The notes under the pieces are model-generated. The model was not told the DNA's origin. It did no database searches and was given only the letters and a program-made list of their open reading frames with translations. A DNA stretch of 32,000 nt, taken from positions 645,010 to 677,009 of the forward strand of contig CAYHAA010000001.1 in assembly GCA_964354495.1 (NCBI GenBank). Direction: 5' to 3'. The stretch's first letter is position 1, and each line of letters begins with the position of its first letter. This document shows positions 1 through 22,453 of the stretch, piece by piece. The DNA is from an uncultured archaeon (GTDB lineage: Archaea; Asgardarchaeota; Thorarchaeia; Thorarchaeales; Thorarchaeaceae). The position numbers and the translations under genes are program-made.

Positions 1-68
1 AACTACAGAATCACAATGAAAGGAAGCATGGCCCTTCGTCAGACTGAGGGTACGGAGGGTGCAATTGC

Positions 69-2261
69 ATGACCGTAGTTTCGGATGTGACATCACTGGT
101 CACAAAGCTACTCAGTCAGGCTGGGATGAAACCCCGGGGTGTTCAAACCGAGGCAATCAACAGAGGTCTCTTGGAGGGAGAGAGCATCATGGTTTCCTCT
201 CCGACAGGCTCTGGCAAGACATTCTGCGGCGAGATTGCGCTTCTGAGAGCAGTTGCCTCCGGAAAGAAAGGGCTGTTTCTCGTACCACTACGAGCTCTTG
301 CAGTTCAGGTATTCAGAACGGTGAAAGAAAGATACGAGCACTTGGGCGTCTCAATTGGGCTGAGCACTGGTGATTTTCAAAACAATGGAGATGGACTTGC
401 TGAGAATGATATTATCATCACGACGTACGAACGTGCAGATTCACTCTTACGAAGCAAAAGTAGTTGTCTCTCTGAGGTCGGCACGATTGTCATCGACGAA
501 ATTCAAACGCTCTCTGAGGTCGGCCGTGGAGCTCGCCTAGAGAGCTTTATTATTCGGGCAAAGCGAACCATCCAAGACCTTCAGATTGTGGCATTATCCG
601 CAACAACAGGAGCTCCCGAGGAACTTGCAGAGTGGCTGGGATGTCATCTTGTGATCTCAGACGAACGACCTGTTCCTCTTGTGTATCGAATAGTTACAGC
701 GAGTGACAAGATTCTCACGATCAAGCATCTAGTGATGACCACAGTTCAAGGGAATGGGCAGGCAATCATCTTTCACCGGACTCGTCGGGAAGCTGAAGCA
801 GAAGCTAGACGACTCGCTGATGATGTGGGGCGCCAGTTCACTTCTGATGAGAAGACGCGCCTTGATCACGAGCTGAACTCTGTTGAGAATTGGCATGTGC
901 CCCTCTCTTCAGATCTTAGAGTCCTTCTACACAATGGTATTGCATTTCATCATGCAGGTCTTGGCTTCAATGGTCGTCGAATTGTAGAGCGATTGTTCGA
1001 TAAAGGAATGGTCCGCGTCATATGTGCAACGACAACATTGGCAGCCGGAATGGACCTGCCAGCTAGAACCGTGATACTCTCCAACTTCAGGTCTCCTGCT
1101 GACCACAGAAAATTCCTGTCAGCAAACACAGTCCACCAGATGTTGGGGAGGGCGGGTCGTCCTACTCGTGACAAGATAGGATTCGGAATAATCATTGGAA
1201 ACAGCACAGGTGAGAGTGAGGAGGCAAAACGCCGGTACTTCGAAGTCACCGAAGATGCAACATCAGGAAAGGAAGTTCTATCACCCAAGTATGATCGTGT
1301 CAACAGTGCACTTGCCCACCCTGACACTCTTGCTGAGCAGCTTCTTGTTGCTCTCGACATGATGTCCTCGGCATCCATTGAAGACATCGAGAATGGCTTG
1401 CTTGGTGAATCCTTCTTGGTCTTCTGCGCAATTCGAGACTCAAAGGCTCCAATGAGGGTCTTTCAGCTAGGCGAAATCTCGGCGGCTTCAGTCTTGGAGC
1501 AGCATGCTCTCCCTGAGACCATTCAGACTGCGCGTAAGGATTTGCTCGGTAAGACATCACTTCGTGAGAAGAACGAAACCGTAATTGGCGGGATTGTTAC
1601 GACGCTTGATGGAGGGCAATTCACATGTCGTTTCTCGGTACGTCTTTCGTCATCGGGTGTTGTTGAAGGTCCCATGTGCTCGTGTGGCTCACCCTTGTCT
1701 GAGAGCGGCATTCTGTGCTATCATCTGGTGACTCTAGGAATGGCTGCTGCCAGGAACTTGGGCAATCTGGCTGACTACGTCATTCCTCTCTCACTCTCTG
1801 AATCGAGCCCTCTGGGTCTGTTGATACGCCTTGGACTCGTCGAGGGTGATATTAGTGGAAAGATTAGACCTACACGTCTTGGTCGTGCCGTGAGTAGACT
1901 CTATCTGCGCATTCCCACGGTTCGAGAGACCCTTGCAATGCTCCCCTCGACTGAGGACGTTAAGTCGCTCTTATGGCTCTTGAGGCACGCTGTTTCAATT
2001 GAAACTGGGATGTCACTCGACGACGGATTTGACAATTTGATCAGCTATCTTGTGACCACTGATATGTCGATAGAGGACTTGGCGCAGCAGTTTGAATTAA
2101 GCATTGGCGATGTCTGTGGCTTGCTGGACACTTCTAGGTGGCTTCTGCACGCCATTTCTGTTTTAGCTGAATTGGGATGCCTTGAGAAGGCCACTGAGAT
2201 AGCTCAGGGTCTTCGTGAGGCATTGGATCGACGACTGATAAACAATGTAGAGGAGGACTAA
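69..2261 (+). CDS. Hel308/Ski2-like SF2 helicase with internal SWIM zinc finger (730 aa)
   Basis: Motifs: I SPTGSGKT, Ia LVPLRALA, II DEIQ, III SAT, IV IFHRTRREAE, V ATTTLAAGMDLP, VI QMLGRAGR. Hel308-like winged-helix end (LIRLGLVE...RPTRLGRAVSRLYL). CSCG-x8-LCYH fits SWIM CxC-xn-CxH. Confidence 0.92.
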   Translation: MTVVSDVTSLVTKLLSQAGMKPRGVQTEAINRGLLEGESIMVSSPTGSGKTFCGEIALLRAVASGKKGLFLVPLRALAVQVFRTVKERYEHLGVSIGLSTGDFQNNGDGLAENDIIITTYERADSLLRSKSSCLSEVGTIVIDEIQTLSEVGRGARLESFIIRAKRTIQDLQIVALSATTGAPEELAEWLGCHLVISDERPVPLVYRIVTASDKILTIKHLVMTTVQGNGQAIIFHRTRREAEAEARRLADDVGRQFTSDEKTRLDHELNSVENWHVPLSSDLRVLLHNGIAFHHAGLGFNGRRIVERLFDKGMVRVICATTTLAAGMDLPARTVILSNFRSPADHRKFLSANTVHQMLGRAGRPTRDKIGFGIIIGNSTGESEEAKRRYFEVTEDATSGKEVLSPKYDRVNSALAHPDTLAEQLLVALDMMSSASIEDIENGLLGESFLVFCAIRDSKAPMRVFQLGEISAASVLEQHALPETIQTARKDLLGKTSLREKNETVIGGIVTTLDGGQFTCRFSVRLSSSGVVEGPMCSCGSPLSESGILCYHLVTLGMAAARNLGNLADYVIPLSLSESSPLGLLIRLGLVEGDISGKIRPTRLGRAVSRLYLRIPTVRETLAMLPSTEDVKSLLWLLRHAVSIETGMSLDDGFDNLISYLVTTDMSIEDLAQQFELSIGDVCGLLDTSRWLLHAISVLAELGCLEKATEIAQGLREALDRRLINNVEED

Positions 2262-2266
2262 CAATT

Positions 2267-3955
2267 TTGGATACTCATCTGATTGACGCGAATGAGATTG
2301 ATGAAGAAATAACGGAAAAAGGATCGACCGTGAGTCCAAGTGAAGCTGACGTATCAGAAACCTTGAAACTCACCGGTCATATCACAACAGACTATCCAAA
2401 TGGATTGACACTAGGGGTCAAGCTCGAATCTGTTCCAGGAACTCGAGGCGTGCACGCCGACGTTGTATATGCCTTGGATTTGCGACGAGCTACATTTGGA
2501 AAGGGCGGACTTGCCATCCGAGCTGCAGTGCTAGAGACCATAAGTCGAGACCTCGACAAGGTCCTAAATGATGTTGGACTGGGCGAACTTCTTCGTGAAC
2601 GTGCAGTCCTGACTCCATGGGGTCACATGCGATTGCCGTTGTTGCAGGGTGCGTCGCATGGGTCTCTGTCCCTGATGCATGAAACTCGGACCGTGTATGT
2701 CATCGTTGAGAACGCAAAGCCTACGTTTGACCTCACCTGGCTTACAGAGGCCGGCAGAATTGTAGCTGCTGACCAGTTCGCTCTTATCAGTCAGAGTGAT
2801 TCTCGGTCGAAGCTCTCAGATCTGAGGAAGAGCGTTGGGGGCGAAAAGTGGCAGCTTCTTGAAATGGGCTTGACAAAGGGATGGTTCGGTGTCCTTGCCC
2901 TGCTCTCGTTCATGATAGGTCTGTCGACATCATTCACTATACTCTTGGCAGGTTCGAGTTCGCTCATCATACCCGTACTAGTAAGTCTCGCATCTGGTGT
3001 TGTGAGCGGGTGGCTGCTACGCTCGTCGAGAACCTGCGTTTCAGCGTTTCAGGAAACACTGGCCAAGGAACGTGAGCGTCTTTGTGAGTTGGGCGACACA
3101 ACTCGAATAACGCGCTCTATTGCGGAAAACGAGGACAGGCTTCAACTCATTGCTGATCTCAACTTCATAGTTTCGCCTCTTATGGCAGCTGTGGGTACGG
3201 CCATCAGCAACGGTGACGTTGATGCAACAGTCAGTGTTGCCTGTTCTATTCTTGATGAATGTGTCAGATTGGCTCCCAGACCCTCTGAGTCATCTCCTGT
3301 GATTCGTGGAGACGATGGCTTGCGCCATTTCATAGGGTTATTCGAGTATCTAGGAGGAAACATCGAGGAGGCGAGTCTTGCACTCGCATATGTTGGCCTC
3401 ACAGGACACCTGACTAAACGAATAACATTAGGTGAAGCAGTTGCACACCTGACGCAGCTGAACAACGCCCTTTATGACATTGGTGCACTCAGACCCAATA
3501 TCAAAGAAGCTTTGGACGACCACCTTAACATGATAGGTTTCAAAGAGACGGTGGATGAGATAGATAAGGAGATTAGGAGTGCAGAGGAGCCCACCCCTGC
3601 GTCAAGGGCAAAAACTGATGAAGAGGGCGTTCGCGACGAGCTGCAACCGGAAGAAGCAGCGCATCTGAAGCGTTTCGACAGCCTCACTGAGGATGACGAA
3701 CTTCATGATCAGATTCGACAAGCCTCTGTAGAGGTATCTCCAGATGATGAACCAGTTGCTTTGGTTGATTCTGGTACTAAGATATCTGACTCGACTGAGG
3801 AAGTGACCATTGTCGCTACTGACATTATTGCTGGGAGGATGAAGAAACAGAAGAGTGAACCTGCCGAACCAGCACAGCTTCTCCTAATTGAGGACTTTGA
3901 GTGTATGAAATCAAGCAGTGAAGCAAAAGAGGAGCGTGGATCTGCTGGCGTCTAG
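2267..3955 (+). CDS. Hypothetical membrane protein (562 aa): central hydrophobic hairpin, acidic C-terminal tail
   Basis: Long ORF with TTG start 5 nt after the helicase stop. Two hydrophobic segments (WFGVLALLSFMIGLSTSFTILLAG; LIIPVLVSLASGVVSGWLL). E/D-rich C-terminus. No family recognised. Confidence 0.8.
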   Translation: MDTHLIDANEIDEEITEKGSTVSPSEADVSETLKLTGHITTDYPNGLTLGVKLESVPGTRGVHADVVYALDLRRATFGKGGLAIRAAVLETISRDLDKVLNDVGLGELLRERAVLTPWGHMRLPLLQGASHGSLSLMHETRTVYVIVENAKPTFDLTWLTEAGRIVAADQFALISQSDSRSKLSDLRKSVGGEKWQLLEMGLTKGWFGVLALLSFMIGLSTSFTILLAGSSSLIIPVLVSLASGVVSGWLLRSSRTCVSAFQETLAKERERLCELGDTTRITRSIAENEDRLQLIADLNFIVSPLMAAVGTAISNGDVDATVSVACSILDECVRLAPRPSESSPVIRGDDGLRHFIGLFEYLGGNIEEASLALAYVGLTGHLTKRITLGEAVAHLTQLNNALYDIGALRPNIKEALDDHLNMIGFKETVDEIDKEIRSAEEPTPASRAKTDEEGVRDELQPEEAAHLKRFDSLTEDDELHDQIRQASVEVSPDDEPVALVDSGTKISDSTEEVTIVATDIIAGRMKKQKSEPAEPAQLLLIEDFECMKSSSEAKEERGSAGV

Positions 3956-4631
3956 TGGACCGTTGATGGACGCGCTCGGTCTTAGAGGCCTGATTCACCT
4001 GTGGGGAGATGCAGGGTCGGGCAAGACACTTTTCGCTGTTGCGCTTGCCTGCGATGTTTCAAGGAATCATCGTGTTGAATGGATCAATACCGATGCGAAG
4101 AGGAGTTTCATTTCTCATCTCAAGAAGAATGCTGTTGCATCAGGTGGCAAAACGGAGAATATTGCAGTCACATTCACGGAGGACCATACAGAGCTATGTA
4201 CGCTCATCGAAGGACTACCGAGTGCGATTGCTGATGTTTCTCTGGTTATTATTGATCCGATCACACGAGTCCTTGACCTGGCTCGGCATAATCCAGTCTT
4301 GTGGGGTCGTGAGATCATCGAGGACGTGTTACCGACACTGACAGGTATTGTGACTCAAAACAACATCGATATCATCATCACTAGCGAAAGCCGCATGATG
4401 CAGGACTCAACTAATCATGCAGTCCATCACAACTCGATATCAAGATGGGCTGACCATGATCTCTGCATGACCCGCAGCACAGACAAGCCCTATTCGCAGG
4501 TATCAAGATTTTCAGAGGATGGAATGAAGGAACTTGCTTCGATGCGGATAGACAATCGAGGAGTGATTGAAGTCGTACCACAGATGGTTCTGCCGACTGC
4601 ATCAAGAGGGGTGAACGAACTTGTTTGGTAA
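3918..4631 (+). CDS. RecA/RadA-superfamily ATPase, RadB-like paralog (~230 aa)
   Basis: Walker A GDAGSGKT, WINTD, Walker B LVIIDP, IIITSE strand. No N-terminal HhH domain. True start may be GTG 3936 (after AGAGGAG) or ATG 3966. Confidence 0.85.
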   Translation: MKQKRSVDLLASSGPLMDALGLRGLIHLWGDAGSGKTLFAVALACDVSRNHRVEWINTDAKRSFISHLKKNAVASGGKTENIAVTFTEDHTELCTLIEGLPSAIADVSLVIIDPITRVLDLARHNPVLWGREIIEDVLPTLTGIVTQNNIDIIITSESRMMQDSTNHAVHHNSISRWADHDLCMTRSTDKPYSQVSRFSEDGMKELASMRIDNRGVIEVVPQMVLPTASRGVNELVW

Positions 4632-5589
4632 TGTTCTGACGAAGATGATTGTGCTAGTCGTGGGTGGAGCGATAGTTCTCGCTACCGGAGCTGAGTTACT
4701 AGCATCGGTGGTTTCCGTGGTACTAGCGTTTCGATTTGGTAACTTCGTACCGCTTCTCGCTGTAGCTGTGTTGACAATTGTCATACAGATAGTTACCAAT
4801 CATGCTTCCCATGATTCTCGAGGTTTCATCGTCATTAAGACGCTAGCGTATGCCATCACTGGCTACCTTGCTTTGACTGTCTTCCTGATAGCTTTTCCCT
4901 ACGGTCTGATTATATCTATTCTGACAAGTGGAGCGGTGTGTGTGTTATCATCGGCATTTCGTAAACAGAAGCTAGGCATATACTGGACGAAAGTCAAACA
5001 GTCACTCAGTCACTCACAGAACGGACTTCACGGACTGGCCAATAGGCAAGTCCCTGTGGGCGATGGGACTTCCTTCAAGCTGAATTCGTTCCATACCATA
5101 GTGATTCTGGAGGAAGGCGTCAGAGAGAAGATTGTTCAATTGCTACGAGAACGTCCGCTCTTGCCAGTTTCGTTCACACACTACGAAGACTGTGATGTCA
5201 TATTCATCGCTGATGAAAACGATCCTGTACGATATGAACATGTCATGAAGCTTCTGAAGGACTCGAGTATCGGAGTAAAGGGCCCTGCGTCACCATTGCT
5301 TGCAGAGGCTGTGCAGATGGTTCCTATACTTGATTCTCGGAATGGCCTGAAGTTCGAGGACTACCGGCTTGCTCGTGATGAGAAGACAATCTGCAGCTTG
5401 CTTGCTCAGGCGCCATCGCGTCTGACGGTCTTTCCTTCACCCCTCGGGCTTGGCGTACTAATTCCCGCCATGGAGGCTCTAGGAATGAATGTAGAACGCC
5501 TCAAACGAGGATGTGAAGCTGATATCCTACTAAATCGAGAACACTCGCATCTTGAGGAGGTCGAAGAACCTATTGAGGGCACCGCTTGA
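4621..5589 (+). CDS. Hypothetical membrane protein (322 aa): about four N-terminal TM segments plus soluble C-terminal domain
   Basis: TTG start preceded by GGGGTGA, overlapping the upstream gene by 11 nt. The first ~110 aa are strongly hydrophobic. Confidence 0.8.
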   Translation: MFGNVLTKMIVLVVGGAIVLATGAELLASVVSVVLAFRFGNFVPLLAVAVLTIVIQIVTNHASHDSRGFIVIKTLAYAITGYLALTVFLIAFPYGLIISILTSGAVCVLSSAFRKQKLGIYWTKVKQSLSHSQNGLHGLANRQVPVGDGTSFKLNSFHTIVILEEGVREKIVQLLRERPLLPVSFTHYEDCDVIFIADENDPVRYEHVMKLLKDSSIGVKGPASPLLAEAVQMVPILDSRNGLKFEDYRLARDEKTICSLLAQAPSRLTVFPSPLGLGVLIPAMEALGMNVERLKRGCEADILLNREHSHLEEVEEPIEGTA

Positions 5590-6289
5590 GTCACTTGAAG
5601 CAACAACCGAACCATTGTTTCGAATACATCCTAGAATATTGAATGATAGTATAGGGAAGCTGTTTCTTCCTCAGCAGATTAGTCTCTTTCACGGACGAGA
5701 ACGTGCGCCGCTCAGCATACTCGCTCACGCAATGGGAGTCTCGGCAGCCAGGATTGAAAACGCAAGCTGTGCTTTCTTGGATTCAGGTACGAACTATATT
5801 CCAGCTCTGGTTCGAACACTCTGCGACTCAAAGAAAGAGTCGACAGAACTCCTGAAGAGAATCGTAGTTGGGCAGGTCTTCGGATTGGATGATGTTATTG
5901 AGAAAGTTCAGCTGCTCCATGATATGGGCAACATTTCTCTGATCGTTCTCGATAGTATTACTGGCGCCCTAAACCTATCAGGAGCTCCAGGCTGCATTGG
6001 TCGCCAGAGAACTCTCTTTGGCACTTTGGATGTCATTCGACGAGCAAACAATGACCTGAATTCCCACGTAATGATTACTGACCACTCGTCGCAAAACTGG
6101 ATATCTGGGGCGCCGACTCCCATCGGCGGGAATGTCCTGTCACATGCTGTAGACAGCGTTGTGCTCGTCGATAGACTGCGCCAAGGCGAGGAACTCGTCC
6201 GTATCCTGATTGAACGAAGCCCATCTCCATCAGCAGCTCCTGGCGTCATAGTCATGGCTGGACCGAAGGGAATCCGGAGTATCAGGTGA
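5552..6289 (+). CDS. RecA/RadA-fold paralog with degenerate Walker A (~240 aa)
   Basis: HGRERAPLS at the P-loop position (no GKT), FLDSGTNY, Walker B LIVLDSIT, and RadA-like PIGGNVLSHAVDSVVLV. Start uncertain (TTG 5552 or TTG 5573). Confidence 0.8.
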   Translation: MRRSKNLLRAPLESLEATTEPLFRIHPRILNDSIGKLFLPQQISLFHGRERAPLSILAHAMGVSAARIENASCAFLDSGTNYIPALVRTLCDSKKESTELLKRIVVGQVFGLDDVIEKVQLLHDMGNISLIVLDSITGALNLSGAPGCIGRQRTLFGTLDVIRRANNDLNSHVMITDHSSQNWISGAPTPIGGNVLSHAVDSVVLVDRLRQGEELVRILIERSPSPSAAPGVIVMAGPKGIRSIR

Positions 6290-7290
6290 ATTCAATGGGC
6301 GTGAAGAATTGGGGCGATGATGTCATTCCGTGGAAATGGACGTCAGCATCCTTAATCGCTCCTGGAGCAATCGCTATAGATGTTCCAAACTATCTCACTC
6401 GAAGACTTGTCGTGATGCGTGAGAAGAGGGAGCGAGAAGGAAGGTTACCCTTGAATCATGTTGGAATGTTTCTCAGCCTCCTCAAAGTTGCATTAGGTGC
6501 TCACGTTCTTCCCGTCTTCATCTTCGATGGTCCCCCAGAATCACGAAAACGCAGCCCGAATCCTGGACTAGTGGAGAAGGCTTCAACTCTCTACAAGAGA
6601 TTCCAACAGGAGCGGGACCCCTTCAACGAAGAAATGTCTGCTGAGCTTCGGAGAAGTCCTGCGCTCAGAGCATACTTTGCTGCCGCGCATTTGAAAGACC
6701 TCGGAAGTATCGTGGGCGTTCCAACGCTTACAGCACCTTCTGAGGCAGAGATGTTTGCAGCTGTTCTCTGTAGGGACGGTGCCGTAAAGACAGTTGTGTC
6801 AAATGATGCAGATGCTCTTCTCTTTGGGAGTCCTCATGTCACGAAACAGATACAGCTCTCATCGAATCGCATTCTCTCCGTTGCATTGAATGATTTTGAG
6901 AAGCATCTTGGCCTCGACATCGAGCTCCTCCGAGATCTTGCAGTCGTTTCAGGATGTGATTTTCATAAGAAGGGTGTTAGGGGTATTGGAGTGAAACGTG
7001 GAACGGTCCTTCTTCGCCGATATGGAGGTCTCGAAGGATTGCTCAAGGCTCACGGCTACTCCCATGCAGAGCGGAGTGAGTTCATCGAGGCGAGGGAAGT
7101 GTTTGATGAGGCTTCCTATATGTCTGCCAAGGATCTGTATCTGACTCTGAACCCTCCGCTTGTGTCCAAATTTGTTGGAGCTCTTGAGATTATCATGTCC
7201 TCGAAACATGCAGAAACAATCGCAAGCAGGATAGTTACCCTATGGCGCGGCTTTGACAACAGGCAGTCAACATTGGAGCAATGGCTCTAG
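6286..7290 (+). CDS. fen: FEN1/XPG (Rad2)-family structure-specific nuclease with C-terminal PIP box (334 aa)
   Basis: MGV start, IAID, FIFDG, APSEAE, SNDADALLFG, SGCDF, H3TH GVRGIGVK, and C-terminal QSTLEQWL matching the archaeal FEN1 PIP motif. GTGA overlap with the upstream gene. Confidence 0.88.
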   Translation: MNSMGVKNWGDDVIPWKWTSASLIAPGAIAIDVPNYLTRRLVVMREKREREGRLPLNHVGMFLSLLKVALGAHVLPVFIFDGPPESRKRSPNPGLVEKASTLYKRFQQERDPFNEEMSAELRRSPALRAYFAAAHLKDLGSIVGVPTLTAPSEAEMFAAVLCRDGAVKTVVSNDADALLFGSPHVTKQIQLSSNRILSVALNDFEKHLGLDIELLRDLAVVSGCDFHKKGVRGIGVKRGTVLLRRYGGLEGLLKAHGYSHAERSEFIEAREVFDEASYMSAKDLYLTLNPPLVSKFVGALEIIMSSKHAETIASRIVTLWRGFDNRQSTLEQWL

Positions 7291-9332
7291 AATCTCCTCT
7301 GTGCTGACCAGATGTCTTTCCATCTCTGGCTATCCCTGTTTCTTATCTGATGAAGGACTGACATTCTATATGTCTGCGATGACTTGAGTCGTGCGGTGAA
7401 GGAGCGATCAGATGCTTCCTCCATAATGTCACGCAGTATTCCGGCAACATGATCATTCTTCTTCGCGGGTACCTGTATGTGCGCAACTACGTCATTCGAG
7501 TTTCCGACCAACAATCTGACGAAGGGAAGTCGTCCGGTCATATCATCGATGAGAGAGTCTCTTGACCTTCTATCGTAGCAGTTTGCCACCGCCATCAGTC
7601 CATCAGGAAGCCCACAGAATTCTAATGCCGGGAAGTAGACTCGATTCAGCACATGGTCACTTATCATCTGATGAAGCAATCTATTTGCTGTCCGAATCGG
7701 GAAATCTACCTGGTCAAACAACCATTTCCTCTGCGTTTTGGAACCCTCGAATCTCCATAGAATACTGAGAAGCTCCGTCTGCCTCTCTGTCAACGAAAAC
7801 GGTTTGCTATCTATATGCAATGTGGAGTATTGAACGGTTCTCTTCTTATTCTTCTTCTTGGGTGAATCAATGTCTCCAATATTCTCAAGATTCCACTTTC
7901 CAGTTTGCACATTGAAGTAGTCCAAATTCATCGATATGATTTCATCCTCAACGACTGCTTCATGCGATCCTCTAGGTAGAGAAATGACCTCAGGTCCGTT
8001 GGTCAGGAACGGTTCAATATATACAGCGCAGCCACGGATTTTCTGCTCGGTCAAAATCATTCTCTCGACAAGTCCGTCATTGAGTATCTCTGACCTCTGA
8101 AGAGGCGTGAATATGTACCTATAACGAAGTCCAAGTTTTCGAAGCGATGGAATATAACGCTCGTGCAGTAGGTGTTCAAGCTTCTGTAGTGCATAGTAAG
8201 CTGTGCGCCCTCTGAACTGAGATACTTGCTCAAGATCCTTGGCGTTTAGGCTTCTGGAGATATTCCGTTTAGCAAGATTCATGCAAAGCCCTGTAAGAGG
8301 AGCGTATTTCAGCAAGTTGATCTCTCGACGGAATAGTTGCAGGAGCTTCTCATATTCGTTCGCTGCTGGTCCATCAGGTCTGAGCGCCAGGACATCCAAA
8401 CGAGTAGCTGATACAGAACGAACATCGATTTCTTCTTGGAGATGACCGCTAAATCCCTTCAGCATCGCCAGCTCATCAGAGATTTCTCTCCTGAGAGATG
8501 TCCTCAGTTTTTTGCTGTCAGAGTCTCTGGATTCAATTCTCCGATACCAGTCACTTATCTTTCTAGAGAGAGGATTTGGTTGTGCTATAGAGACATCCAG
8601 TTTCGGATCTTGACCAAGGGCTTCATTGATCAGCTCATCAGCTTGTTTCAATCTTGTAGCGAGGTCATCCCAAGAAAACTTGCCAGAATAGACACTTAGT
8701 GCACGGTCGAGGACTTCTATCTTGACCTCTTCCATCATATAGGACCATAGACTGTATAGCCATGGGACGCTCTGGTCAACAATCCGTGAGATGAAGTAGA
8801 CGCTTAGAATTGCGGCTGACAAGGAATCCAAGCCCGGCATCACTGCTGACCAATCTGCTGCACTCGGAACATGCTCTGTGACAATCCTGCTGAGAGCATA
8901 AGAGAAAGAGTTAGCCTCTTCTGACTCCTCTTTCTCCTCTGCCACTTCCGCACCTGTTCCCTCTTCTGTTTCCTCTTCTCCCATCTCTTCTTTAGCCTGT
9001 TTTCCAAAGCTCTTGGGCAACAGTGATTTGACTTGTTCTCTGAGGGTTCCTCCTGTGGGCTTGAGTGGCCTCATTCGAGTTGTTATCTCATCCATAACCT
9101 TTTCATAATTGAGAGGCTTGTTGAGTGACGCTGGCGTAACTGCGGTATCAGGAAGAGGCGACAGATGAAAGGTCTTCTCGAAAAGCGTTTCATCTAATCT
9201 GCCTGAGTCTGTTTTCCAAGAGGATGAGTCCATGATTATGTGCCTAAGTATATTCAGATCAGAAGTCCGCCTGCTTCTTTTCATCCACTCCAAGTAGCTC
9301 TGCTTTTTCTCAGTCAAGCTTGCATACATCAT
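7287..9332 (-). CDS. Large hypothetical protein (681 aa) with Lrp/AsnC-like (wHTH plus alpha/beta) units in the C-terminal half; paralog of 18841-20814
   Basis: YIPSLRKLGLRYRYI resembles the Lrp linker. A second HTH-like start (LTERQTELLSILW) is followed by YFPALEFCGL. An acidic low-complexity stretch lies in the N-terminal part. Domain call is by eye. Confidence 0.7.
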   Translation of the reverse strand: MMYASLTEKKQSYLEWMKRSRRTSDLNILRHIIMDSSSWKTDSGRLDETLFEKTFHLSPLPDTAVTPASLNKPLNYEKVMDEITTRMRPLKPTGGTLREQVKSLLPKSFGKQAKEEMGEEETEEGTGAEVAEEKEESEEANSFSYALSRIVTEHVPSAADWSAVMPGLDSLSAAILSVYFISRIVDQSVPWLYSLWSYMMEEVKIEVLDRALSVYSGKFSWDDLATRLKQADELINEALGQDPKLDVSIAQPNPLSRKISDWYRRIESRDSDSKKLRTSLRREISDELAMLKGFSGHLQEEIDVRSVSATRLDVLALRPDGPAANEYEKLLQLFRREINLLKYAPLTGLCMNLAKRNISRSLNAKDLEQVSQFRGRTAYYALQKLEHLLHERYIPSLRKLGLRYRYIFTPLQRSEILNDGLVERMILTEQKIRGCAVYIEPFLTNGPEVISLPRGSHEAVVEDEIISMNLDYFNVQTGKWNLENIGDIDSPKKKNKKRTVQYSTLHIDSKPFSLTERQTELLSILWRFEGSKTQRKWLFDQVDFPIRTANRLLHQMISDHVLNRVYFPALEFCGLPDGLMAVANCYDRRSRDSLIDDMTGRLPFVRLLVGNSNDVVAHIQVPAKKNDHVAGILRDIMEEASDRSFTARLKSSQTYRMSVLHQIRNRDSQRWKDIWSAQRRF

Positions 9333-9349
9333 CCGTTTTCGTTCTCTGT

Positions 9350-9389
9350 GCCGCTATTGAGAAGTATGTACGCTTTTGTAAATAGCGGC
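9350..9389. promoter_or_regulatory. 9-bp perfect inverted repeat GCCGCTATT-N22-AATAGCGGC in a divergent intergenic region
   Basis: Arms at 9350-9358 and 9381-9389, 18 nt from the start codon at 9332. The repeat is seen directly; function is inferred. Confidence 0.45.
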
Positions 9390-9424
9390 TAATGCTTCTT
9401 TCTGCAATTCTACGTGCTTATTAG

Positions 9425-9446
9425 TGTCAATTCAGACTTATTGACA
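9425..9446. promoter_or_regulatory. Operator-like dyad TGTCAAT-N8-ATTGACA abutting the ATG at 9446
   Basis: Perfect 7-bp arms at 9425-9431 and 9440-9446. Confidence 0.5.
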
Positions 9447-10024
9447 TGAAGCGGAATCAACTTACACTTGTCGCTCGGGATTCAATGGCTTACTTCTCAG
9501 AATCTGCTCTCGCCGATACCTTGACTGAGAGTCTATGGGACACCACCAAGAATCACACGCTGAACATTATCTTGCGTGAGCCTGCCCTCATTGAACTTGC
9601 TAATCGAAGGGATTCCGGCGTCATTCCCTTTTGTGACAACCTGCTTCATTCTGAGGACCAGGAGTGTTGGTTCTCTGCTCTCAAGGCACTAGAGGCTCTG
9701 AACACATATGATGCTGCACAACGACTTCTCATTCTGTGTGGGGATTCTGGGACAAGTGACAGAAGAATAGTCCTGAATGTGTTGGCTCGTGTTCTGACAT
9801 CTTCGCAACGTGAAGGCTTTAGGAGACTCCTACGCTCGGTTCTGGCCCCTGGGGAACTTGACATATCCAGATGGACGCCAACGGCATTGCGTGTTCTTGA
9901 GTCCGTGTGTCACGAACTTGGATTCTCTCTCGAAGATACCACAGGGAAGCTCTATGAAACAAACAGATTTGAAGCCGCAGAAGTGCAGTTTGGTACCTTG
10001 AGAAGAAGCAAGAAACCACTATAG
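9446..10024 (+). CDS. HEAT-repeat-like helical protein (192 aa)
   Basis: LLHSEDQECWFSALKALEAL and DRRIVLNVLARV resemble HEAT/PBS-lyase repeats. Confidence 0.65.
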   Translation: MKRNQLTLVARDSMAYFSESALADTLTESLWDTTKNHTLNIILREPALIELANRRDSGVIPFCDNLLHSEDQECWFSALKALEALNTYDAAQRLLILCGDSGTSDRRIVLNVLARVLTSSQREGFRRLLRSVLAPGELDISRWTPTALRVLESVCHELGFSLEDTTGKLYETNRFEAAEVQFGTLRRSKKPL

Positions 10025-10200
10025 TCCTTCTTGATGCACTCAAAGGCACCATTCTTCTTTTTTGGCTGCAGAAATAAGCCAAAATTGTCTATTTCATGTT
10101 ATACGAGTTGATGTTCGATTTCTTGAGACTTGGACAATGCTTTGAGTCCAAGGCACCTTGTTACAACGTGAGAGAATGATGTACAGCACGTTGGATACGC

Positions 10201-10830
10201 ATGGCCGATTGCTCGTCGAGCAGAGGAGGAATTGCTTTGCAGACTGATCTTCTTACACTGATGACCGCAAACCTACTCTTCTCTGTAAAGATTACTCCAT
10301 TGGTGGTAGTGATTGCCACCCTAATTCGTTCCCTTCTTCTCTTCTCAGGGAACAAGAGAGCTTTCAAGTCTTGGACTAGAAATGCTCTCCTATCAGCTAT
10401 TACCATCGTGTTTCTTCCGGGCAGCATTGTGAACACTGCAGTTCGTTATGTAGTCTGTTCGCTTTTCAGAATTGACTTGAACGGCGTTGGCGCAGGAAGC
10501 ACATATGCTGAGCTCAACCTCTTTCTGAAAGTGGATTCTCCTCCACGTGTGGCTGTTCTCGTTTCTGCCCTCTATGTCAGCACAGTTGCATCCATCTTCA
10601 TTGGGTTCTCACTACTTGTTCTTCCAGTGGTCTTCGTTGCCGGTGCTCCTCTGCAGCTGCTTTGTTGGTACTTGGCACTCGGAGTGCTTTTCAACAGCTC
10701 ACTTCGCGGAGGCGATGTGTCCCTGCTCGGAGCCGCGCTGCATGGTCACCCTGGAAAAGGCATTGCTGAGTTCATTATTGCTGTCATTGTCCTCGCAGTC
10801 TTCTACTCATTTGTGGGGGTCGGAGTATGA
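10201..10830 (+). CDS. Polytopic membrane protein resembling M50-like zinc metalloproteases but lacking HExxH (209 aa)
   Basis: FLPGSIVNTAVRYVVCSLF sits where homologs have PG..HExxH. WYLALGVLFNSSLRGGD sits where homologs have W...S...H..PS..D. Several hydrophobic helices. Confidence 0.6.
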   Translation: MADCSSSRGGIALQTDLLTLMTANLLFSVKITPLVVVIATLIRSLLLFSGNKRAFKSWTRNALLSAITIVFLPGSIVNTAVRYVVCSLFRIDLNGVGAGSTYAELNLFLKVDSPPRVAVLVSALYVSTVASIFIGFSLLVLPVVFVAGAPLQLLCWYLALGVLFNSSLRGGDVSLLGAALHGHPGKGIAEFIIAVIVLAVFYSFVGVGV

Positions 10831-11012
10831 GTCTTGTACAAGACAACCAATCAATCATGTCCCGGGTCGATCCGTTCCCCGACGAACCACACCGTTTTCT
10901 ACCATGCTGGACCTGCAGCTTGATGCAATTCCTGATCCGTCTTTTCCTAGAAGATCGACCCGTTGGACACCCTCTCATCAGCTTAGAAGAATCGGGAGTG
11001 GATATCCTGTGA
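10827..11012 (+). CDS. Putative small protein (61 aa) with CxxC, translationally coupled at both ends
   Basis: ATGA overlap with the upstream stop, TGATG overlap with the downstream start at 11012. Contains CWTC. Confidence 0.4.
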   Translation: MSLVQDNQSIMSRVDPFPDEPHRFLPCWTCSLMQFLIRLFLEDRPVGHPLISLEESGVDIL

Positions 11013-14000
11013 TGAAACAAGCCCTCATCTGCACCTTATTTGTATGCACCATTCTGTTTGCTATTCCGATGACTGCAGTCATAGCTCCAATCGGCGATAC
11101 AGCAGAAGAGCAGTTTAATGTCGAAGAAACTGACTTGAGCGCTGCTGACGCTGGCATCACACGTCCCAGCAATCCTTACATTGTCCTAGAACTCACTTCA
11201 GGTGATGTGCCTGCCCGAGGAGATGCATGGTCTCAGCTGTTGAGTTCCAAAGGAATCCCGAACGTACTACTGAGAACTGAAGATGTTCTATTGAATTCCT
11301 CGGTGATATCGGACACGCCTGCGATTCTTCTTGACGGAAGCCTTGGATCCTACAGCGGAAATCTTGTTTCGCAGTCTCTGATTGATTTGCTCATCCGCCT
11401 AGATACATCTCTGATACTTACTGGACGTTCGGCCTGGTTATTGCACAGATACTCGGGCCGAGGTTCACCCTCTCTGACCGCTCCAGCTGAGACGAAGCTA
11501 CTCGGCTCGTCAACGTACTCTGGAGCGGTCTTCCTCTCACAGCCTGAATCTCTTACTGTTGGCCTGCCTCTGACGTCTGAGAATGGTCTAGTGTTCCCAG
11601 TCGATGAAGCTCAAACTGAGATGTCACTACTCGTGAATCTCACTCGGAGCACAGACTCCTCGACTATAGCTCCTCTCAGACATGATTCTTGGCCGCTAGA
11701 TGTCTTCCTGTTCGCACCTGAGAATCCTGGTTTCCTGACATCGACTGGAGAGGGGCTTCTCGTGAACGTCATCGCATTCTGTACTGCGATACGTGAGTCT
11801 TCTACTGCATCTATTCTATCAGGGTTTCAAACCACGCAGAGTGCTCTTCTTGCAGGAGGAATGAGGTACATGCATGAACCCACGATTTCGTCTACGTATT
11901 TTGCAGTGCATACGATGGAGTCCCTCCTAGTGGGTTCCTCGTGGGAGAACTGGGTGTTGACAAACGCACCTCTGGTTCAAGACATACTCACGAGTCTTCT
12001 TGTAGACTATGGCTCAGAAGCAGGCTTTATGACATCGCAGACAGATACTGTTGTCGACTGCAGAAGCACTGCTCAGGGCCTCTGGCTTGTAAGTGAAATG
12101 AGTCTTACTGTTTCTTTCCCTGTTACTGAGATTGTTGCATACCTAAGTGCCCGACAGAGTTCTGATGGAGGATTCGAGAATTATGTTACCACAACCTTTC
12201 ACGTCACCGAATCACTTTGGGCTTCAGGGTGGCTTTCCAGCATCGATTCAAACCAGCTGGAGATTTGGTTAAGGTCTCTGGTCATTGATGGCGCAAAGAC
12301 CTCCAATCCTGATCTCTGGGGTGCAATAGGTTCGAATCCCACTAGTACCTCACCGTTGAGCAACTATGCAACAGAGTATCTGAGGTCTCTGTTCTTCCTC
12401 GGAAGAGCTCACGCAGACCCGTCAAAGTTGACAAGCTGGATTCTGACTAGAACCTCAAATGGCGACGGCTCATTCAGGAACTCAATAGGTCTTGATGAGG
12501 AGGTCGTCACTGGTACGGCTTCGGCCTTGACAAGCATGCAGATACTCGGTACTCTGAATGGGCTGAACAGGACCTCTGGGCTAAGCTGGCTCACTGATAA
12601 TCAACTTGCATCAGGTGGTTTCGGTTTGAAGACTGCCACATCTGACCTTGTTGGCAAGACGCGCGAAACCTCTCGAGTGGCAGCCTGTCTTAAGATGCTC
12701 GGAGAAACCTCAGGACCTCTTGTGACTGGAGCCGTAGCTTATGTCTATTCAATCACTACTGATGTTGGGTTCGAGCCTATGGACCCACTGCCATCGCTTA
12801 TGTGGACAAGCTGGCTTCTCGAGACGGGTAGGCTGATACATGCTTCCCAGAGCGTCGACCTTGACCTCGCCCGAAACTACATCTCCTGTTATGACGGACC
12901 ATCTACGCTCACTGTCTATCCGTTCTGGGAGAATCTCACTACCATGAGCTCACCTGAGTATGGCATGAACCAGTATAGAACAAAGAGTGTCTGGATACAG
13001 TACTTTGGAGTTTCTGCAGCTCGTTCTCTTGGCATAGAACCTGCGCCGAGTGTTGCTTCAGACATCGTCCTCTATCTCTCCCAGACTCAATACGCCACTG
13101 GACATTACCGACCAACGCCGCTCACAGGCACAGCTCACATGCAGCACTCAGTGGCTGCTGTAGAAACTCTCTATATCTTAAATGAGCTTGACACAATCCT
13201 CTATAGAGAGGCCTTGGAAACAGCCATTCTCTCGATGTATAGCGCTGGTTCGTGGAATACTGCTGGGTGGACTCTCAAACCATTCGCTGGCTCTCAACAC
13301 GCCATCGACTATCTGTCGACATGTGCTGCCATTCGATTGGGAATCGTTACTCCTGCCATGGCCGCTGAGATAGCAGCCTGCATAGACGCTCGTCTACAGT
13401 ACTCTGATCTCTTGGCATTGAGCTGGGATGTTGCTACGTTGTCTCTCTTGCAGACTTCAGCCTTCTCCGCAGGGCTTGAGTCCGTGGACACATCACTTGT
13501 GCTTGATGCCCTGAAGTCATCTCATTTTGTTGATGGATGGTTCAATGCAACCAGACTCTGGCAACCTGTCTTGACAATGAGTGTGCTCAAGATGGTGTCC
13601 ATTCTGGGGCTTCGATGTCTTCTTGATGACATTCCTGGTTCTTCATTCACTGCTAGCGCCAGTCCGACAGCAGAACTTGGGACTGTGCTTGATATCTCCA
13701 TAAGTATAGCCTCCTCGTCAGAAACTCACTCTGTCATAGTCAGAGCACTCGACATATCACTATTGTTCAATAATGTAGGAAACAACGACACGCTGCAGCT
13801 ACCGATACCTGCAAACAGAGAATGTCTTGGTCCCTGGAGCATTTCGTTGATGATTTCCGATTGGGGCTCTTCTCGTGCCTTTGGTGCATTAGAGATTGTC
13901 CTCGAAGGAACGTTACAGGGTTCTGCAGCGTTGACGACTCCAGCTGTGAAAATGGGCGCATTCATAAACGGAACTATTCTGTGGACACTCTCAAACGGCT

Positions 14001-17000
14001 TAGACGCTGGTCCTGCTCATACAACAATTCGCCTAGGCAATCCACCAACGTATCGCCAATGGAGCTATGATACACCTTCCCCCTTCGTATTCTCAGTGCC
14101 CACTTCCGACTTTGATGCTGGTATCTATTCGCTCACGGTCACGGTGGAGGTGCCATACTGTGTATCCCTCATACTCAGCGAAGAGGTAGTGATTGCAGAG
14201 CCGAATCCAACCTACATGAGCGCTCCGACAAGCTCTGATGGTCAGGTGGGCAACGAACTCCGCATAGAATGGTCATTACATTGCGTTGAGGACAACACCC
14301 TGATTGGAAGCCAGGCGGTGAGCTTGGTCATCAGAGACAATGCTAATTCAATTGTATTCACTGATGCGCTGATTTCCAGTACCAGCGGCAATGTGTTTCT
14401 CTGGATTCCAGAAGTGAGGGGCGACTTTACGTTCCAGCTGCTCTTTGATGGGAATGGCACTTTGGATAGTAGCCAAGTGGAAGGGAGTATTCGTGTCTAT
14501 GAGGAAACCGTTCTTTCTTGGATGGGTGGAGGCACGATGAATCAGTATTCAACTGTGAACCTCTCAGTCCTTCTGCAGACCTCGCAAGGAGCGGCTCTCA
14601 GTGGGCAGGCAATACAAGTACTCGTCCAAGCTCCTTCGTCAGTCACTGTTATAGATAGTTGGTGTGTCACGAATTCAACAGGATATGCTACGATTCTGTT
14701 TTCATTATCACAGAATGGTGTCTATCTGCTCCAGGCTCAATACCCTGCAAGCAGTTTTCTCCAAGGCTCTAGTGCCTCAGAATCTCTGACCTCATGGTCA
14801 TCAAGCTCTCTAGTACTGGGTGGAATCGAATCTGAGGTGACGATTGGTGGTACTTTTCAGCTACGGGCACAGCTTGATGATCTTGTACTGAATCCTGTGC
14901 CTGGACAGCCCGTTCTTCTGCGAATAACGTTCCTGCCATCCACAGTCCTTGTGGAGCAGACACTCACGTCGGACTCGGGTGGCTACGTGTTTGTTGAATG
15001 GACAGCAGGCTCAGCAGGTACCTATAGATTTGAGGCGATCTATAGTGGAACGATATCGAGAGCCTCCTCTACCGAGAACATTGATTTTCAAGTTCTCATT
15101 CCTGTTGCACTCACTCTCACTACTGCCACATCATCTGAGACAGGCTCTGAAGAATCAATACTCGTAGTGACAGTTGATCATCTTGGTAATCCTATCTCCG
15201 GCATCTCTATCTCATTGATTGTGCGTGGGCCCGGAGGCACAACTCTGTACACGAATCAGTCCTCCACAACGGGTGGCTCTGTCACATTTCTGTGGGCACC
15301 ATCCCAGAGAGGAGTGAATGAAATCACCGTGGTTTCGGCGCGACAGACTTGGTATCACGAAGCATCATCTTCAGTCACGGTGAATGTGTACGAGACTCCT
15401 GCTATTGATGTTGAGATTCCGTTGGATGCCATTGCACCAACAAGTGATACAATCGAGATTTTCATCTTCGACCATGAGAGTCAACCAGTGCAAGGAGTCA
15501 CTATTCGAGTTCAGATTAAGCTGAATGCAACGACAATAGTCGATGGCAATTTCGTGACAGATGGCAACGGGCTTGTCAGTATCACAGTGAATCTTGACAT
15601 TCCAGGTTTCCTTCAAGCCGAGACTACGCTCTTGCCTCAGGGATGGTTCCTCGAGGCTACTGCAAGTTCGAACAGTGTAGTATCGTCTGCCACAACTCTC
15701 CTGATCATAATCCCTGGCCAACCCGTGCAACAAAGCTCGACAGTTGGAATATCATTTTCTCTTAGCGACTTCTCAGGTGCTCCCTTGGCCGCATCAATGA
15801 TTCAGATTGAAATTGCCTGGGGTAACGGAACAGTCATTCGGTCTGTTACTCGTGTGACTGATAGCACAGGCCATTGTGCTCTTGCACAAACCTTCAATTC
15901 TGTCGGAGACTTTGTCATTCGTGGTTCATACAGTGGCTATGGCTCAAACTCTTCTGCTACTCATGCTGTTGCACAGCGTGTGTTCGTCACGCCATTGATT
16001 GATGTAGCTCATGAACCAAGCTGCATTTCTGGAGAAGCCATGGAGTTCATTGTCAATCTCACCGATGCCCTTGGCAACAACATCATGGGAAGGACAGTGC
16101 AACTGAGCATTGAACAGGGAGGATCAATTGTCTTCGAGGCCCAGTTTCTGTCGGGCGCGGGTCCATCAACAATCACTTGGTATCCGACTCAGGGAGGTAT
16201 TGCTACAATCACAGTAGTCCATCTTGGGAATATGTACTACCTCACAACATCGATGGACACAGCAGTATCCATCATGGAACTCGTCAGCGGCTCTATCGTT
16301 CTATTGCCATGTGAGATTGACATATTCGATTCAGCAGTTCTTGTTTACATTCTCGAAACCGCTATTCCGAGAAGCGGCGTTATAATCCGTTTTGAAGTAC
16401 TTGGAATGGACTTGGTTCCTGTGTGGACAGCTGATCGTCTGACAAACGCTTCAGGTATGGCATCAGTTATCTACACCGCGACAGAAACGCATGGAGTCCT
16501 TCACGTGAATGCAGGCCCTATCGCTGATGAGTTCCTGATTGGCGGCGACGTCCGAGAGCAACTCATTGTCAAGACGTTCTGCAACATCACAGCATCTCTG
16601 CAGCCAACACCGCCGCGCGTGAACACTCTCACTAATATCACAGTTCATGTAATAGACGACCTGGGCGGAACTATCGACGGTCCAACAGTCACTGTAAGTC
16701 TGTACAATCCCTACGGAGAGATTGTGAAGCTAGGCCTCTGGACTAATTCTGAAACAGTCCCTATTGAGAACGGCTTGGCTGTTGTGGACTTCGTACCCAC
16801 AATGGCAGGTCTATATACTGTAGTTTCGAGCTCGTCAGGTTCAACCACAGTTCATGGATTCAGCGGTACGACTCAACACACGGTCTATTCTGTGACCCAG
16901 CTCGTGCTGATTGCATCTGCATACGAGCTCGAGGTGGGACAGACACTAGATGTTATGGCAAGACTTCTTGATCACAATAGTATGCCGCTTGTGGGGAGAA

Positions 17001-21472: not shown

Positions 21473-22453
21473 CTATGCAGTCAGTGCCAGAGCCTCAGGC
21501 AGTATCGTCAGACGCAATTTCGCCACGAGTTCCTTGTACCTGTTGCGAATCGTGACCTCAGTGACACCACTCACTTGCGAGATATCATGTTGTGTGACCC
21601 TGCAATCATGCATGATTGCTGCCACATAGATAGCAGCTGCTGCAAGGCCTCTTGGGTCTCGACCTGTCACAAGACCGCGGACTTCCTTTGCCTTCTCGAG
21701 GATTTCCATGGTGGTGTGCTGCACCTCTGTGGGTAGATCAAGTTCTGAGATGAACCTAGGAACGTACATGGCCGGGCTCGAGATTGGCATCCTGAGCTTC
21801 AGCTTTGTCACAAGCATTCGATAGTGTGCAGAGATCTTTTTCTTCGACTCCCTTGAATGCTCGGCTATCTCTTCAATCGAACGGGGCGAGCCCCGATGCC
21901 TGCAGGCAGCATAAACAGCTGCTGCAGCGGTTGCATCAATGCTTCGGCTTCGCCAGAGTCTTCCCGCAATGAGTTTCCGATACATACGTGCTGCCTCATC
22001 TTTCAAGCTCTGCGACATACCTAGTTGCGATGATAACCGATCAATCTCAGTCATGGCCTGAGCCAAATTCCTATCAAGCGAGCTGTGTACTCGGGTTCGA
22101 ATCTGCCACTTGCGAAGCCGGTAGATCTGTGCTCTCTGTTTTGCACTGAAAGCCACTCCCTTTCCATCTCTGTCACGCCAGTCAATGGTCGTGCTTAGCC
22201 CTTTATCGTGAATCGAAGCGCTCTCGGGCGCGCCAGTCCTTGAGCGAGAGTCTTGTTCATCTGACGTGAATGCACGCCACTCAGGACCTGAGTCTATACG
22301 GTGGTCGCTGAGCACTAACCCGCACTTTGCACAGATCAATTCTCCCTTCTCATTATCCCTGACAACCTCTACTCCCCCACACTCGGGGCATGAGGCGTTC
22401 AGGGTTTCTACTTCTCCTAGTCCCTCTCTTTTATCTAATGAATTGCTTGCCAT
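21473..22453 (-). CDS. tfb: Transcription initiation factor IIB (TFB), copy 2 (326 aa)
   Basis: Zn ribbon CPECGG...CAKCG, B-reader GPEWRAF, HDKGLST, RLRKWQ, two cyclin repeats, TEVTIRNRYKEL. Confidence 0.97.
   Translation of the reverse strand: MASNSLDKREGLGEVETLNASCPECGGVEVVRDNEKGELICAKCGLVLSDHRIDSGPEWRAFTSDEQDSRSRTGAPESASIHDKGLSTTIDWRDRDGKGVAFSAKQRAQIYRLRKWQIRTRVHSSLDRNLAQAMTEIDRLSSQLGMSQSLKDEAARMYRKLIAGRLWRSRSIDATAAAAVYAACRHRGSPRSIEEIAEHSRESKKKISAHYRMLVTKLKLRMPISSPAMYVPRFISELDLPTEVQHTTMEILEKAKEVRGLVTGRDPRGLAAAAIYVAAIMHDCRVTQHDISQVSGVTEVTIRNRYKELVAKLRLTILPEALALTA

Follow-up and report, generated by a model that had tools for sequence, protein, structure and literature searches.

Asgard archaea, Thorarchaeota included, are close archaeal relatives of the eukaryotes, and the origin of recombination mediators (RAD51 paralogs, SWIM proteins and HELQ) and of genetic exchange is an open question. 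In the Shu complex, the SWIM protein SWS1/Shu2 acts with RAD51 paralogs; in archaea, the HerA-NurA-Mre11-Rad50 operon couples a HerA-family protein to a nuclease and makes RadA substrates; and bacterial competence relies on the ComEC channel, the ComFA helicase, the DprA mediator and RecA. The helicase HELQ binds BCDX2, a precedent for a helicase working with RAD51 paralogs (PMC13623763), and the Sulfolobales system Ced and the Thermoproteales system Ted are precedents for a transmembrane (TM)-anchored HerA/VirB4-like component in archaeal DNA import, the imported DNA going into homologous recombination (PMC9905601). Here, a stretch of 32,000 nt (the window; contig CAYHAA010000001.1, positions 645,010 to 677,009) from an uncultured archaeon of the Thorarchaeaceae (assembly GCA_964354495.1, 97.7% complete) was analysed, with the focus on six genes, O1 to O6, located at 69-7290. 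Together they form the 3' portion of an operon of 15 translationally coupled genes that is confined to Thorarchaeales, and the last third of a block of roughly 20 genes that occurs only in Thorarchaeota.

An earlier note on this DNA had described six co-oriented, overlapping open reading frames (ORFs), and exactly six plus-strand ORFs were recovered, with junctions from O1/O2 to O5/O6 of +5, -38, -11, -38 and -4 nt. The database homologues of O5 begin seven codons after the start given in the ORF listing, at a TTG codon that is preceded 12 nt upstream by GAGGAGG, so that the O4/O5 overlap shrinks to -17 nt. On the other hand, the view of these six genes as a self-contained unit had to be abandoned, because nine more plus-strand genes, U1 to U9 (positions 8380-17082 of locus L039), precede O1 with overlaps or with gaps of at most 4 nt, and the stop codon of the last one overlaps the start of O1 by 4 nt (ATGA). 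A minus-strand GH3 gene marks the upstream border of the operon. At the RNA level, two short contigs from the sediment metatranscriptome X20 matched the window with at least 99% identity, at 1075-1283 (O1) and 2816-3038 (O2), neither of them spanning a gene junction and with DNA carry-over being possible; besides X20, the metatranscriptomes comprised three further runs of unknown library type.

All nine same-genus loci, and likewise each contiguous locus of another genus, retained the order of O1 to O6, and purifying selection acts on all six genes (dN/dS of 0.11-0.27 against the closest relative), so that the cluster goes far beyond a chance association. The complete 15-gene order was found in 16 of 19 loci overall (other-genus loci) and even in a metagenome contig with just 30% identity in O2, and a 17th contiguous locus (G386) had no match to U2 or U8. 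Two apparent stand-alone six-gene loci (G370 and G346) were discarded, as their truncations coincide exactly with scaffold gaps of 100 N. When 400 Asgard genomes were surveyed, 85 of which belong to the GTDB family Thorarchaeaceae, an O2 profile detected the protein in 54 of these 85 genomes, covering 15 of the 16 genera, with nothing credible in 314 other Asgard genomes. A U9 profile showed the same pattern plus one full-length match in a sister family of the same order (genome G025, 96% complete), and both profiles combined placed the system in 59 of the 85 Thorarchaeaceae genomes. Thus, the gene neighbourhood is conserved among related genomes, as the earlier note had asked to be checked, and the membrane genes are invariably present.

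The same note had also raised the question of whether canonical radA, radB, hel308 and fen genes exist elsewhere in the genome, and genes of all four kinds were found: RadA (C1:560193, 304 bits), three RadB-like genes, Hel308 (contig C6, 835 bits) and FEN1 (C20:38823, 90.9 bits), the latter being present in all the genomes checked, in addition to an adjacent NurA-HerA pair. Therefore, O1 to O6 are not the sole housekeeping copies, and by sequence comparison the enzyme genes of the operon are extra copies that stand beside the housekeeping ones. O1, O3, O6, U3 and U6 retain their catalytic motifs; O5 and U9 have consistently lost theirs. In an all-against-all hhalign comparison of the 15 families, only U3, O3 and O5 were related to one another, so the operon did not arise as an internal duplication. 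An Atlas feature search yielded no usable matches. The coordinates of all these genes and of their neighbours are collected in Table 1.

Table 1. Genes and motifs of the operon and of the region downstream. Positions are those of the window except where a locus or contig is named.
Feature	Position	Strand	Length (aa)	Description
U1	upstream	+	287	no family
U2	upstream	+	155	no family
U3	L039 9709-10800 (C1:637708-638799)	+	363	full-length RadA: HhH domain, Rad51 177 bits, GPARGGKT
U4	upstream	+	152	CxxC...CxxC Zn-ribbon, possible winged helix-turn-helix
U5	upstream	+	206	no family
U6	upstream	+	680	XPD-like: DEAD_2, Helicase_C_2, GIGKT, DEAH, cysteine cluster
U7	upstream	+	201	2 TM helices
U8	upstream	+	102	no family
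U9	3' end at 1-72	+	786	2 TM helices, degenerate HerA/VirB4-like ATPase domain
O1	69-2261	+	730	ORF listing
SWIM-type motif	1677-1724	+		CxC-x10-CxH, CSCGSPLSESGILCYH, O1 aa 537-552, winged-helix region
O2	2267-3955	+	562	ORF listing
O3	3918-4631	+	237	ORF listing
O4	4621-5589	+	322	ORF listing
O5	5552-6289	+	245	ORF listing; likely true start TTG 5573
O6	6286-7290	+	334	ORF listing
O7	7287-9332	-	681	convergent, no family; linked to the system in both families
192-aa protein	9446-10024	+	192	weak HEAT-repeat match; conserved neighbour in some genera
5-TM membrane protein	10201-10830	+	209	always precedes the giant surface protein
Giant surface protein	11012-18838	+	~2,600	signal/TM start, C-terminal TM anchor
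657-aa protein	18841-20814	-	657	no assigned family
TFB (TFIIB) paralog, tandem	21473-22453	-		
TFB (TFIIB) paralog, tandem	22541-23500	-		
Leucine-rich repeat (LRR) protein	24028-25680	-	550	LRR_8, LRR_4, BspA-type LRR_5

O1 is, as judged from its sequence, a Hel308/Ski2-like SF2 helicase paralog. It contains two RecA-like domains (Pfam DEAD, 109 bits, plus Helicase_C), matches Hjm/Hel308 entries of the PDB with E values of 1e-66 to 1e-69 and carries GSGKT as motif I and DEIQ in place of DEIH as motif II. The NCBIfam Hel308 models matched residues 9-395 with 264-349 bits, that is, only the RecA domains and far under their equivalog cut-offs, and the match to Helicase_dom4_arc was weak (17 bits). 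The protein is 32% identical to the canonical Hel308 of the same genome (C6:85607), and the alignment between both stops before the final ~74 residues of the latter, which we take from the known Hel308 architecture to hold HhH domain 5, this region being unscanned for HhH. O1 thus appears to have no C-terminal HhH domain 5 and to depart from the five-domain architecture of Hel308. The SWIM motif proposed for this helicase was borne out as a signature: CSCGSPLSESGILCYH lies inside a ~70-residue insertion that is missing from canonical Hel308, and the signature CSCG-x10-CxH is kept in all 22 orthologs (7/7 from the same genus, 14/14 from other genera and the one from the sister family). This motif is short, and the Pfam SWIM model gave no match to O1 at E <= 0.01. 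Between genera, the identity of O1 (46-60%) is lower than that of canonical Hel308 (58-64%). In two genomes, G391 (98% complete) and G005 (80%), no canonical Hel308 above E 1e-30 was found and only the SWIM-bearing copy of the operon was detected; the operon copy may perhaps be the sole Hel308 in some lineages.

Three proteins of the operon share the RecA fold. U3, which carries all the features of a RadA (HhH, Walker A and Walker B), is 38-39% identical to the canonical RadA of relatives. O3 could be assigned, weakly and from sequence profiles, as a divergent RadB/RAD51-paralog-like ATPase: it is a short RecA core without an HhH domain, its Walker A (GDAGSGKT, nt 4005-4028) and Walker B motifs are intact, and all its orthologs keep GxxxxGK[T/S]. 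Its match to NCBIfam RadB was weak (29 bits against a cut-off of 172; RadB/AAA_25-like), and in profile searches of the PDB the nearest entry was RadB (E 2e-6), followed by RAD51D and XRCC3 (E 4e-4 to 3e-3). O5 is by the same kind of evidence a RadA/Rad51 core with a dead P-loop, with a Rad51 match of 24.8 bits and profile matches to the RadA/Rad51/DMC1 cores of the PDB at E 1e-18. Walker B is retained in this protein, whereas the Walker A position reads HGRERAPLS (nt 5690-5716), and every Thorarchaeaceae ortholog shows H-G-x-E/D-R/K-x-P-L-T/S at this place, with GKT/S absent. Ordinary nucleotide binding by O5 is therefore not possible, and, as it also has no HhH domain, the protein would fall outside the full definition of RadA/Rad51 (functional Walker A and B plus an N-terminal HhH). 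The O5 ortholog of the sister-family genome (L079 2045-2740, minus strand) retains a P-loop, GGPGTGKT, which indicates that the loss of the ATPase site is derived within Thorarchaeaceae. A predicted complex of O3, O5 and the cytoplasmic domain of O4 (residues 136-322) scored 0.00, with no verdict either way.

O6 is, according to its alignment with canonical FEN1, a FEN1 paralog with a complete set of catalytic acids, as D32, D81, E153, E155, D174, D176 and D225 are all retained. It matched XPG_I with 63 bits, FEN1 in the PDB with E 1e-23 and TIGR03674 with 102 bits, the last below the equivalog level (cut-off 352), and it is 26% identical to the canonical FEN1 of its own genome. Between genera, O6 proteins are 44-56% identical compared to 67-72% for canonical FEN1. 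The C-terminus reads QSTLEQWL (nt 7264-7287), similar to the PCNA-interacting peptide (PIP) consensus QxxLxx[FWY][FWYL]; among orthologs the Q and the L/M are constant and the final two positions are WL, WF, WV, FA, IC or TC. Thus, of the PIP-box FEN1-like nuclease announced in the earlier note, the FEN1-like part was upheld by the seven acids, and the tail is better described as PIP-like.

For the two membrane proteins of the six-gene part, hydropathy and AlphaFold2 (AF2) models gave consistent topologies. O2 has a TM helical hairpin at aa 205-252 (nt 2879-3022); in the AF2 model (pLDDT 75.9) this hairpin separates a beta-rich N-terminal domain from a bundle of helices at the C-terminal side, after which the chain ends in an acidic, disordered tail. 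In O4 (pLDDT 82.5), the four TM helices are N-terminal (nt 4621-4962) and an alpha/beta domain comes after them. The soluble domains of both, and likewise of U7 and U9, would be placed in the cytoplasm, since the numbers of TM helices are even and their flanks positively charged. Neither protein matched Pfam or PADLOC, O2 had a single sub-threshold NCBIfam match to a transporter (E 0.009), and profile searches of the PDB with O2 and O4 returned nothing. Fold searches with both models (Foldseek against the PDB and AFDB clusters, VIA-align wide and the ESM Atlas) gave only their own orthologs or generic helical hairpins. Some of the rows from these searches were considered and judged uninformative, namely the likeness of O2 residues 289-422 to HEPN-like 4-helix bundles (Z 8.0-8.5), that of the soluble domain of O4 to FAD-oxidase C-domain-like and ESX/VirB4 N-domain entries (Z <= 7.4), and the TerL rows (TM-score 0.2). 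An exhaustive HMMER search found only 61 representative clusters of the O2 family among 1.84 billion proteins. By these sequence and model comparisons, O2 and O4 are new families, without detectable sequence or fold relatives beyond Thorarchaeales. A third membrane protein, U9, matched four HerA structures of the PDB weakly (profile E 0.18-0.9) and, with E 3e-5, a DUF87 paralog from its own genome, and its P-loop was absent in every ortholog inspected.

Downstream of the operon, the 5-TM protein and the giant surface protein were found directly after it (after O7 where this is present) in 7/7 other Thorarchaeaceae genera tested. The giant protein contains Big_1, Big_3_5, Filamin, MG2 and alpha-alpha toroid domains, which together resemble alpha-2-macroglobulin (A2M). 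In the sister-family genome, the system occupies one strand of one contig in a different arrangement: two unmatched genes at the U1/U2 positions, U3, U4, U5, U6, two small genes, U9, O1 and O2 are followed by a 5-TM protein (196 aa) and a giant surface protein, both homologous to those of the window, and then by O3-, O4- and O5-like genes and a FEN1 paralog. The profile E values there were 1e-16 for O2, 4e-19 for O3, 6e-7 for O4, 7e-15 for O5 and 4e-42 for the FEN1 paralog. The two genes between O2 and O3 indicate that O1-O2 and O3-O6 are separable blocks, and, as the pair lies inside the operon in this genome and downstream of it in Thorarchaeaceae, its linkage to the enzyme genes has survived rearrangement. 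An O7-like gene is also linked to the operon in the sister-family genome, on its opposite side.

Compared to the systems described above, the locus resembles Ced and Ted in being chromosomal and in encoding a HerA/VirB4-like protein with a TM anchor alongside several membrane proteins, small 2-TM and polytopic ones, and Ted loci also carry HerA and Rad50 genes (PMC9905601). In contrast to these systems, the HerA-like U9 has no P-loop in any ortholog and would thus not be an active ATPase of the CedB/TedB type. Moreover, neither a VirB6/CedA-like channel with 6-7 TM helices nor a VirB2-like pilin was recognised here with Pfam, NCBIfam or PDB profiles, which may miss families as divergent as these (HHpred was needed in PMC9905601), and a giant surface protein is linked where Ced and Ted have pili. 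The recombinase, the two putative mediators, the two helicases and the flap nuclease that form part of the Thorarchaeota operon have no counterpart encoded by Ced and Ted. With HELQ-BCDX2 it shares a Hel308-family helicase accompanied by RecA-fold paralogs, one of them without ATPase motifs (PMC13623763). The SWIM motif is a likeness to Shu, with the difference that it is fused into the helicase instead of belonging to a separate protein; in addition, the paralogs are lineage-specific, any orthology to the eukaryotic ones being putative, and are encoded in an operon with membrane proteins. The pairing of a HerA-family protein with a nuclease is also that of the HerA-NurA-Mre11-Rad50 operon, but here the HerA-like protein is degenerate and membrane-anchored, the nuclease is of the FEN1 and not of the NurA type, and there is no Mre11 or Rad50. 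If DNA uptake is indeed the role, the membrane parts, a membrane helicase motor, a recombinase loader and a recombinase would parallel bacterial competence by analogy only, as no homology of the operon proteins to any competence protein was detected.

As the leading interpretation, we tentatively propose that the operon encodes a recombination machine anchored in the membrane, whose most likely substrate is DNA at the envelope that is taken up or exchanged between cells and then recombined. Its products would assemble on the cytoplasmic face of the membrane, with O2, O4, U7 and U9 as anchors or scaffolds, and the DNA would be unwound or translocated by O1 (3'-5') and the XPD-like U6 (5'-3'). 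O3, with its ATP-binding site, and O5, whose ATPase site is dead, would pair up as a mediator comparable to Rad55-Rad57, BCDX2 or Shu, which loads or stabilises the U3 RadA on single-stranded DNA; the SWIM finger of O1 may be the docking site of this pair. The PIP-like tail of O6 would allow PCNA to recruit this nuclease, which would trim 5' flaps after strand invasion and synthesis. DNA at the envelope is favoured as the substrate because ordinary fork repair offers no obvious task for the membrane and surface components. A bolder version, which is doubtful, is a trans-envelope apparatus for DNA exchange in which the adhesin-like giant and the new membrane proteins capture or pass DNA, the helicases of opposite polarity handle it at the cytoplasmic face, the private RadA with the active/dead mediators on the SWIM-Hel308 recombines it into the chromosome, and the PCNA-linked FEN1 finishes the joints. 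Several observations weigh against the leading interpretation. The protein contacts, the DNA activities and the transcript unit are all read from the genes; U9, having no P-loop, would not be a translocation motor as CedB and TedB are thought to be; and no channel, pilin or other recognised DNA-uptake component came out of the Pfam, NCBIfam and PDB profile searches. The folds of O2 and O4 carry no functional information, and inherited synteny could explain the linkage to the surface protein, for which two arrangements among related genomes are the basis. Chromosomal fork repair would be just as compatible with the assignment of O1 and O6 to Hel308 and FEN1 and with the PIP-like tail, and the tail itself is degenerate in some genera (QTTLEEIC) and in the sister-family genome. 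Finally, the system was not detected in ~30% of the Thorarchaeaceae metagenome-assembled genomes; those without a match are mostly fragmented, though a few of them are rated at least 90% complete.

The closest competitor is an internal role in chromosome maintenance, in the form of a membrane-tethered pathway for fork restart, crosslink repair or double-strand-break repair made up of Hel308, RAD51-paralog mediators, FEN1-PCNA, XPD and a second RadA, which is the HELQ/Shu-like fork-repair module suggested in the earlier note; being tethered, it might keep chromosomes that are broken or replicating in one fixed place, or link repair with segregation or division. As an analogy it is reasonable, since Hel308/HELQ acts jointly with RAD51 paralogs and SWIM proteins in the fork repair of eukaryotes and HELQ binds BCDX2 (PMC13623763), and it agrees with the PCNA context implied by the tail of O6, with the strictly vertical inheritance of a single copy at a fixed locus and with a catalytically dead HerA-like subunit that provides no translocation motor. 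However, a complete canonical set of Hel308, RadA, FEN1 and HerA-NurA exists in the same genome, and this explanation leaves without a role the five membrane proteins as well as the linked 5-TM protein and the giant extracellular protein, the last two lying inside the operon in the sister-family genome. Given its Hel308/FEN1/PCNA fork-repair flavour, an internal repair role in general is nearly as likely as one on DNA at the envelope, and the maintenance pathway so defined is a possible, less probable alternative to the envelope-acting machine. The other suggestion of the earlier note, a membrane-tethered system for processing DNA, fits better, except for its defence variant, with the wider context, in which there are five membrane proteins, a degenerate HerA-like protein with a TM anchor and, linked to the operon, a giant surface protein. 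A defence system, in which a membrane sensor, the helicases and the nuclease would degrade viral or plasmid DNA, could account for the membrane location, where DNA enters, for the presence of a nuclease with two helicases and for the scores of O1 against PADLOC helicase models, Hachiman HamB included, and PDB 8vx9. But these matches reflect generic similarity in the Ski2/Hel308 core shared with HamB; O1 matched only helicase models, and O2 to O7 matched none except for a weak TRIP13 P-loop match of O3, so that no other component fits any defence model. HamA nuclease is absent, and phyletic pattern and gene content differ from those of Hachiman. A degradative system would not be expected to include genes for a recombinase and mediators, the chromosomal neighbours are ordinary, and the system is single-copy, at a fixed locus in one lineage and with conserved order wherever it was detected in Thorarchaeaceae, unlike patchy and mobile defence systems, all of which makes defence improbable.

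A still smaller likelihood is given to a domesticated or resident mobile-element module, conjugative or derived from viral replication and recombination, that became fixed in the lineage. The strong divergence of the paralogs (26-32% identity to host FEN1 and Hel308) would agree with it, as would the resemblance of a HerA/VirB4-like protein, helicases, a recombinase and membrane proteins to transfer modules, and Ced and Ted are themselves domesticated type IV secretion systems (PMC9905601). Against this origin, neither a scan of IMG/VR viral contigs with O5 nor tblastn of O2 against phage and plasmid records found relatives, PHROGs and NCBIfam gave no matches for the ten proteins of unknown function, the G+C content is uniform along the window (0.47-0.51), the flanks are conserved, and neither an integrase nor a tRNA gene was noticed at the borders, where no tRNA scan was run. 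Lastly, unrelated repair paralogs and membrane proteins might merely share a transcript as conserved neighbours without a common function. Joint action is deduced from the genes and the prediction of the O3, O5 and O4 complex gave no answer, but start/stop overlaps at nearly every junction, an order that is invariant down to 25-30% identity and the restriction of all components to the same lineage make this the least credible of the explanations, and a very improbable one.

The earlier note did not recognise this arrangement as a described operon, and in our full-text literature searches neither the operon nor a Hel308 with a SWIM motif turned up in any paper. Asgard RadA paralogs were surveyed in 2025, and that study makes no mention of Thorarchaeota, of a second RadA of the U3 type or of this system, and published work reports no Asgard counterpart of the Rad51/DMC1 split (PMC12722695). 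Whatever its substrate, the system would be a large conserved machine with several families of unknown fold, in which one Asgard order has independently built a multi-paralog toolkit (second copies of RadA, XPD and FEN1, an active/dead RecA-fold pair and a SWIM-Hel308) and connected it with a giant surface protein and no fewer than five membrane proteins. Its genes are clonable candidates for the study of pre-eukaryotic RAD51-paralog mediation and helicase-SWIM coupling, of DNA exchange or repair in Asgard archaea and of new membrane families. Should the trans-envelope interpretation be true, the operon would represent a prokaryotic forerunner or analogue of the eukaryotic network of HELQ, RAD51 paralogs and SWIM proteins, coupled to gene exchange between cells in the nearest relatives of eukaryotes.

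Regarding the surroundings of the system, its chromosomal neighbours are GH3, an oxidoreductase, the two TFB paralogs, the LRR protein, an MFS transporter, a GH38 enzyme and LarA. Two reports describe the TFB paralog TFB3 of Sulfolobales as an activator of the DNA-damage response, including Ups/Ced (PMC6101594, PMC6101591); a similar regulatory link between the TFB paralogs of the window and the operon would be pure speculation by analogy. A putative paralogy between O7 and the 657-aa protein was checked with an O7 profile, which gave only E 0.12 and did not confirm it. Both proteins flank the surface-protein unit, one on each side.

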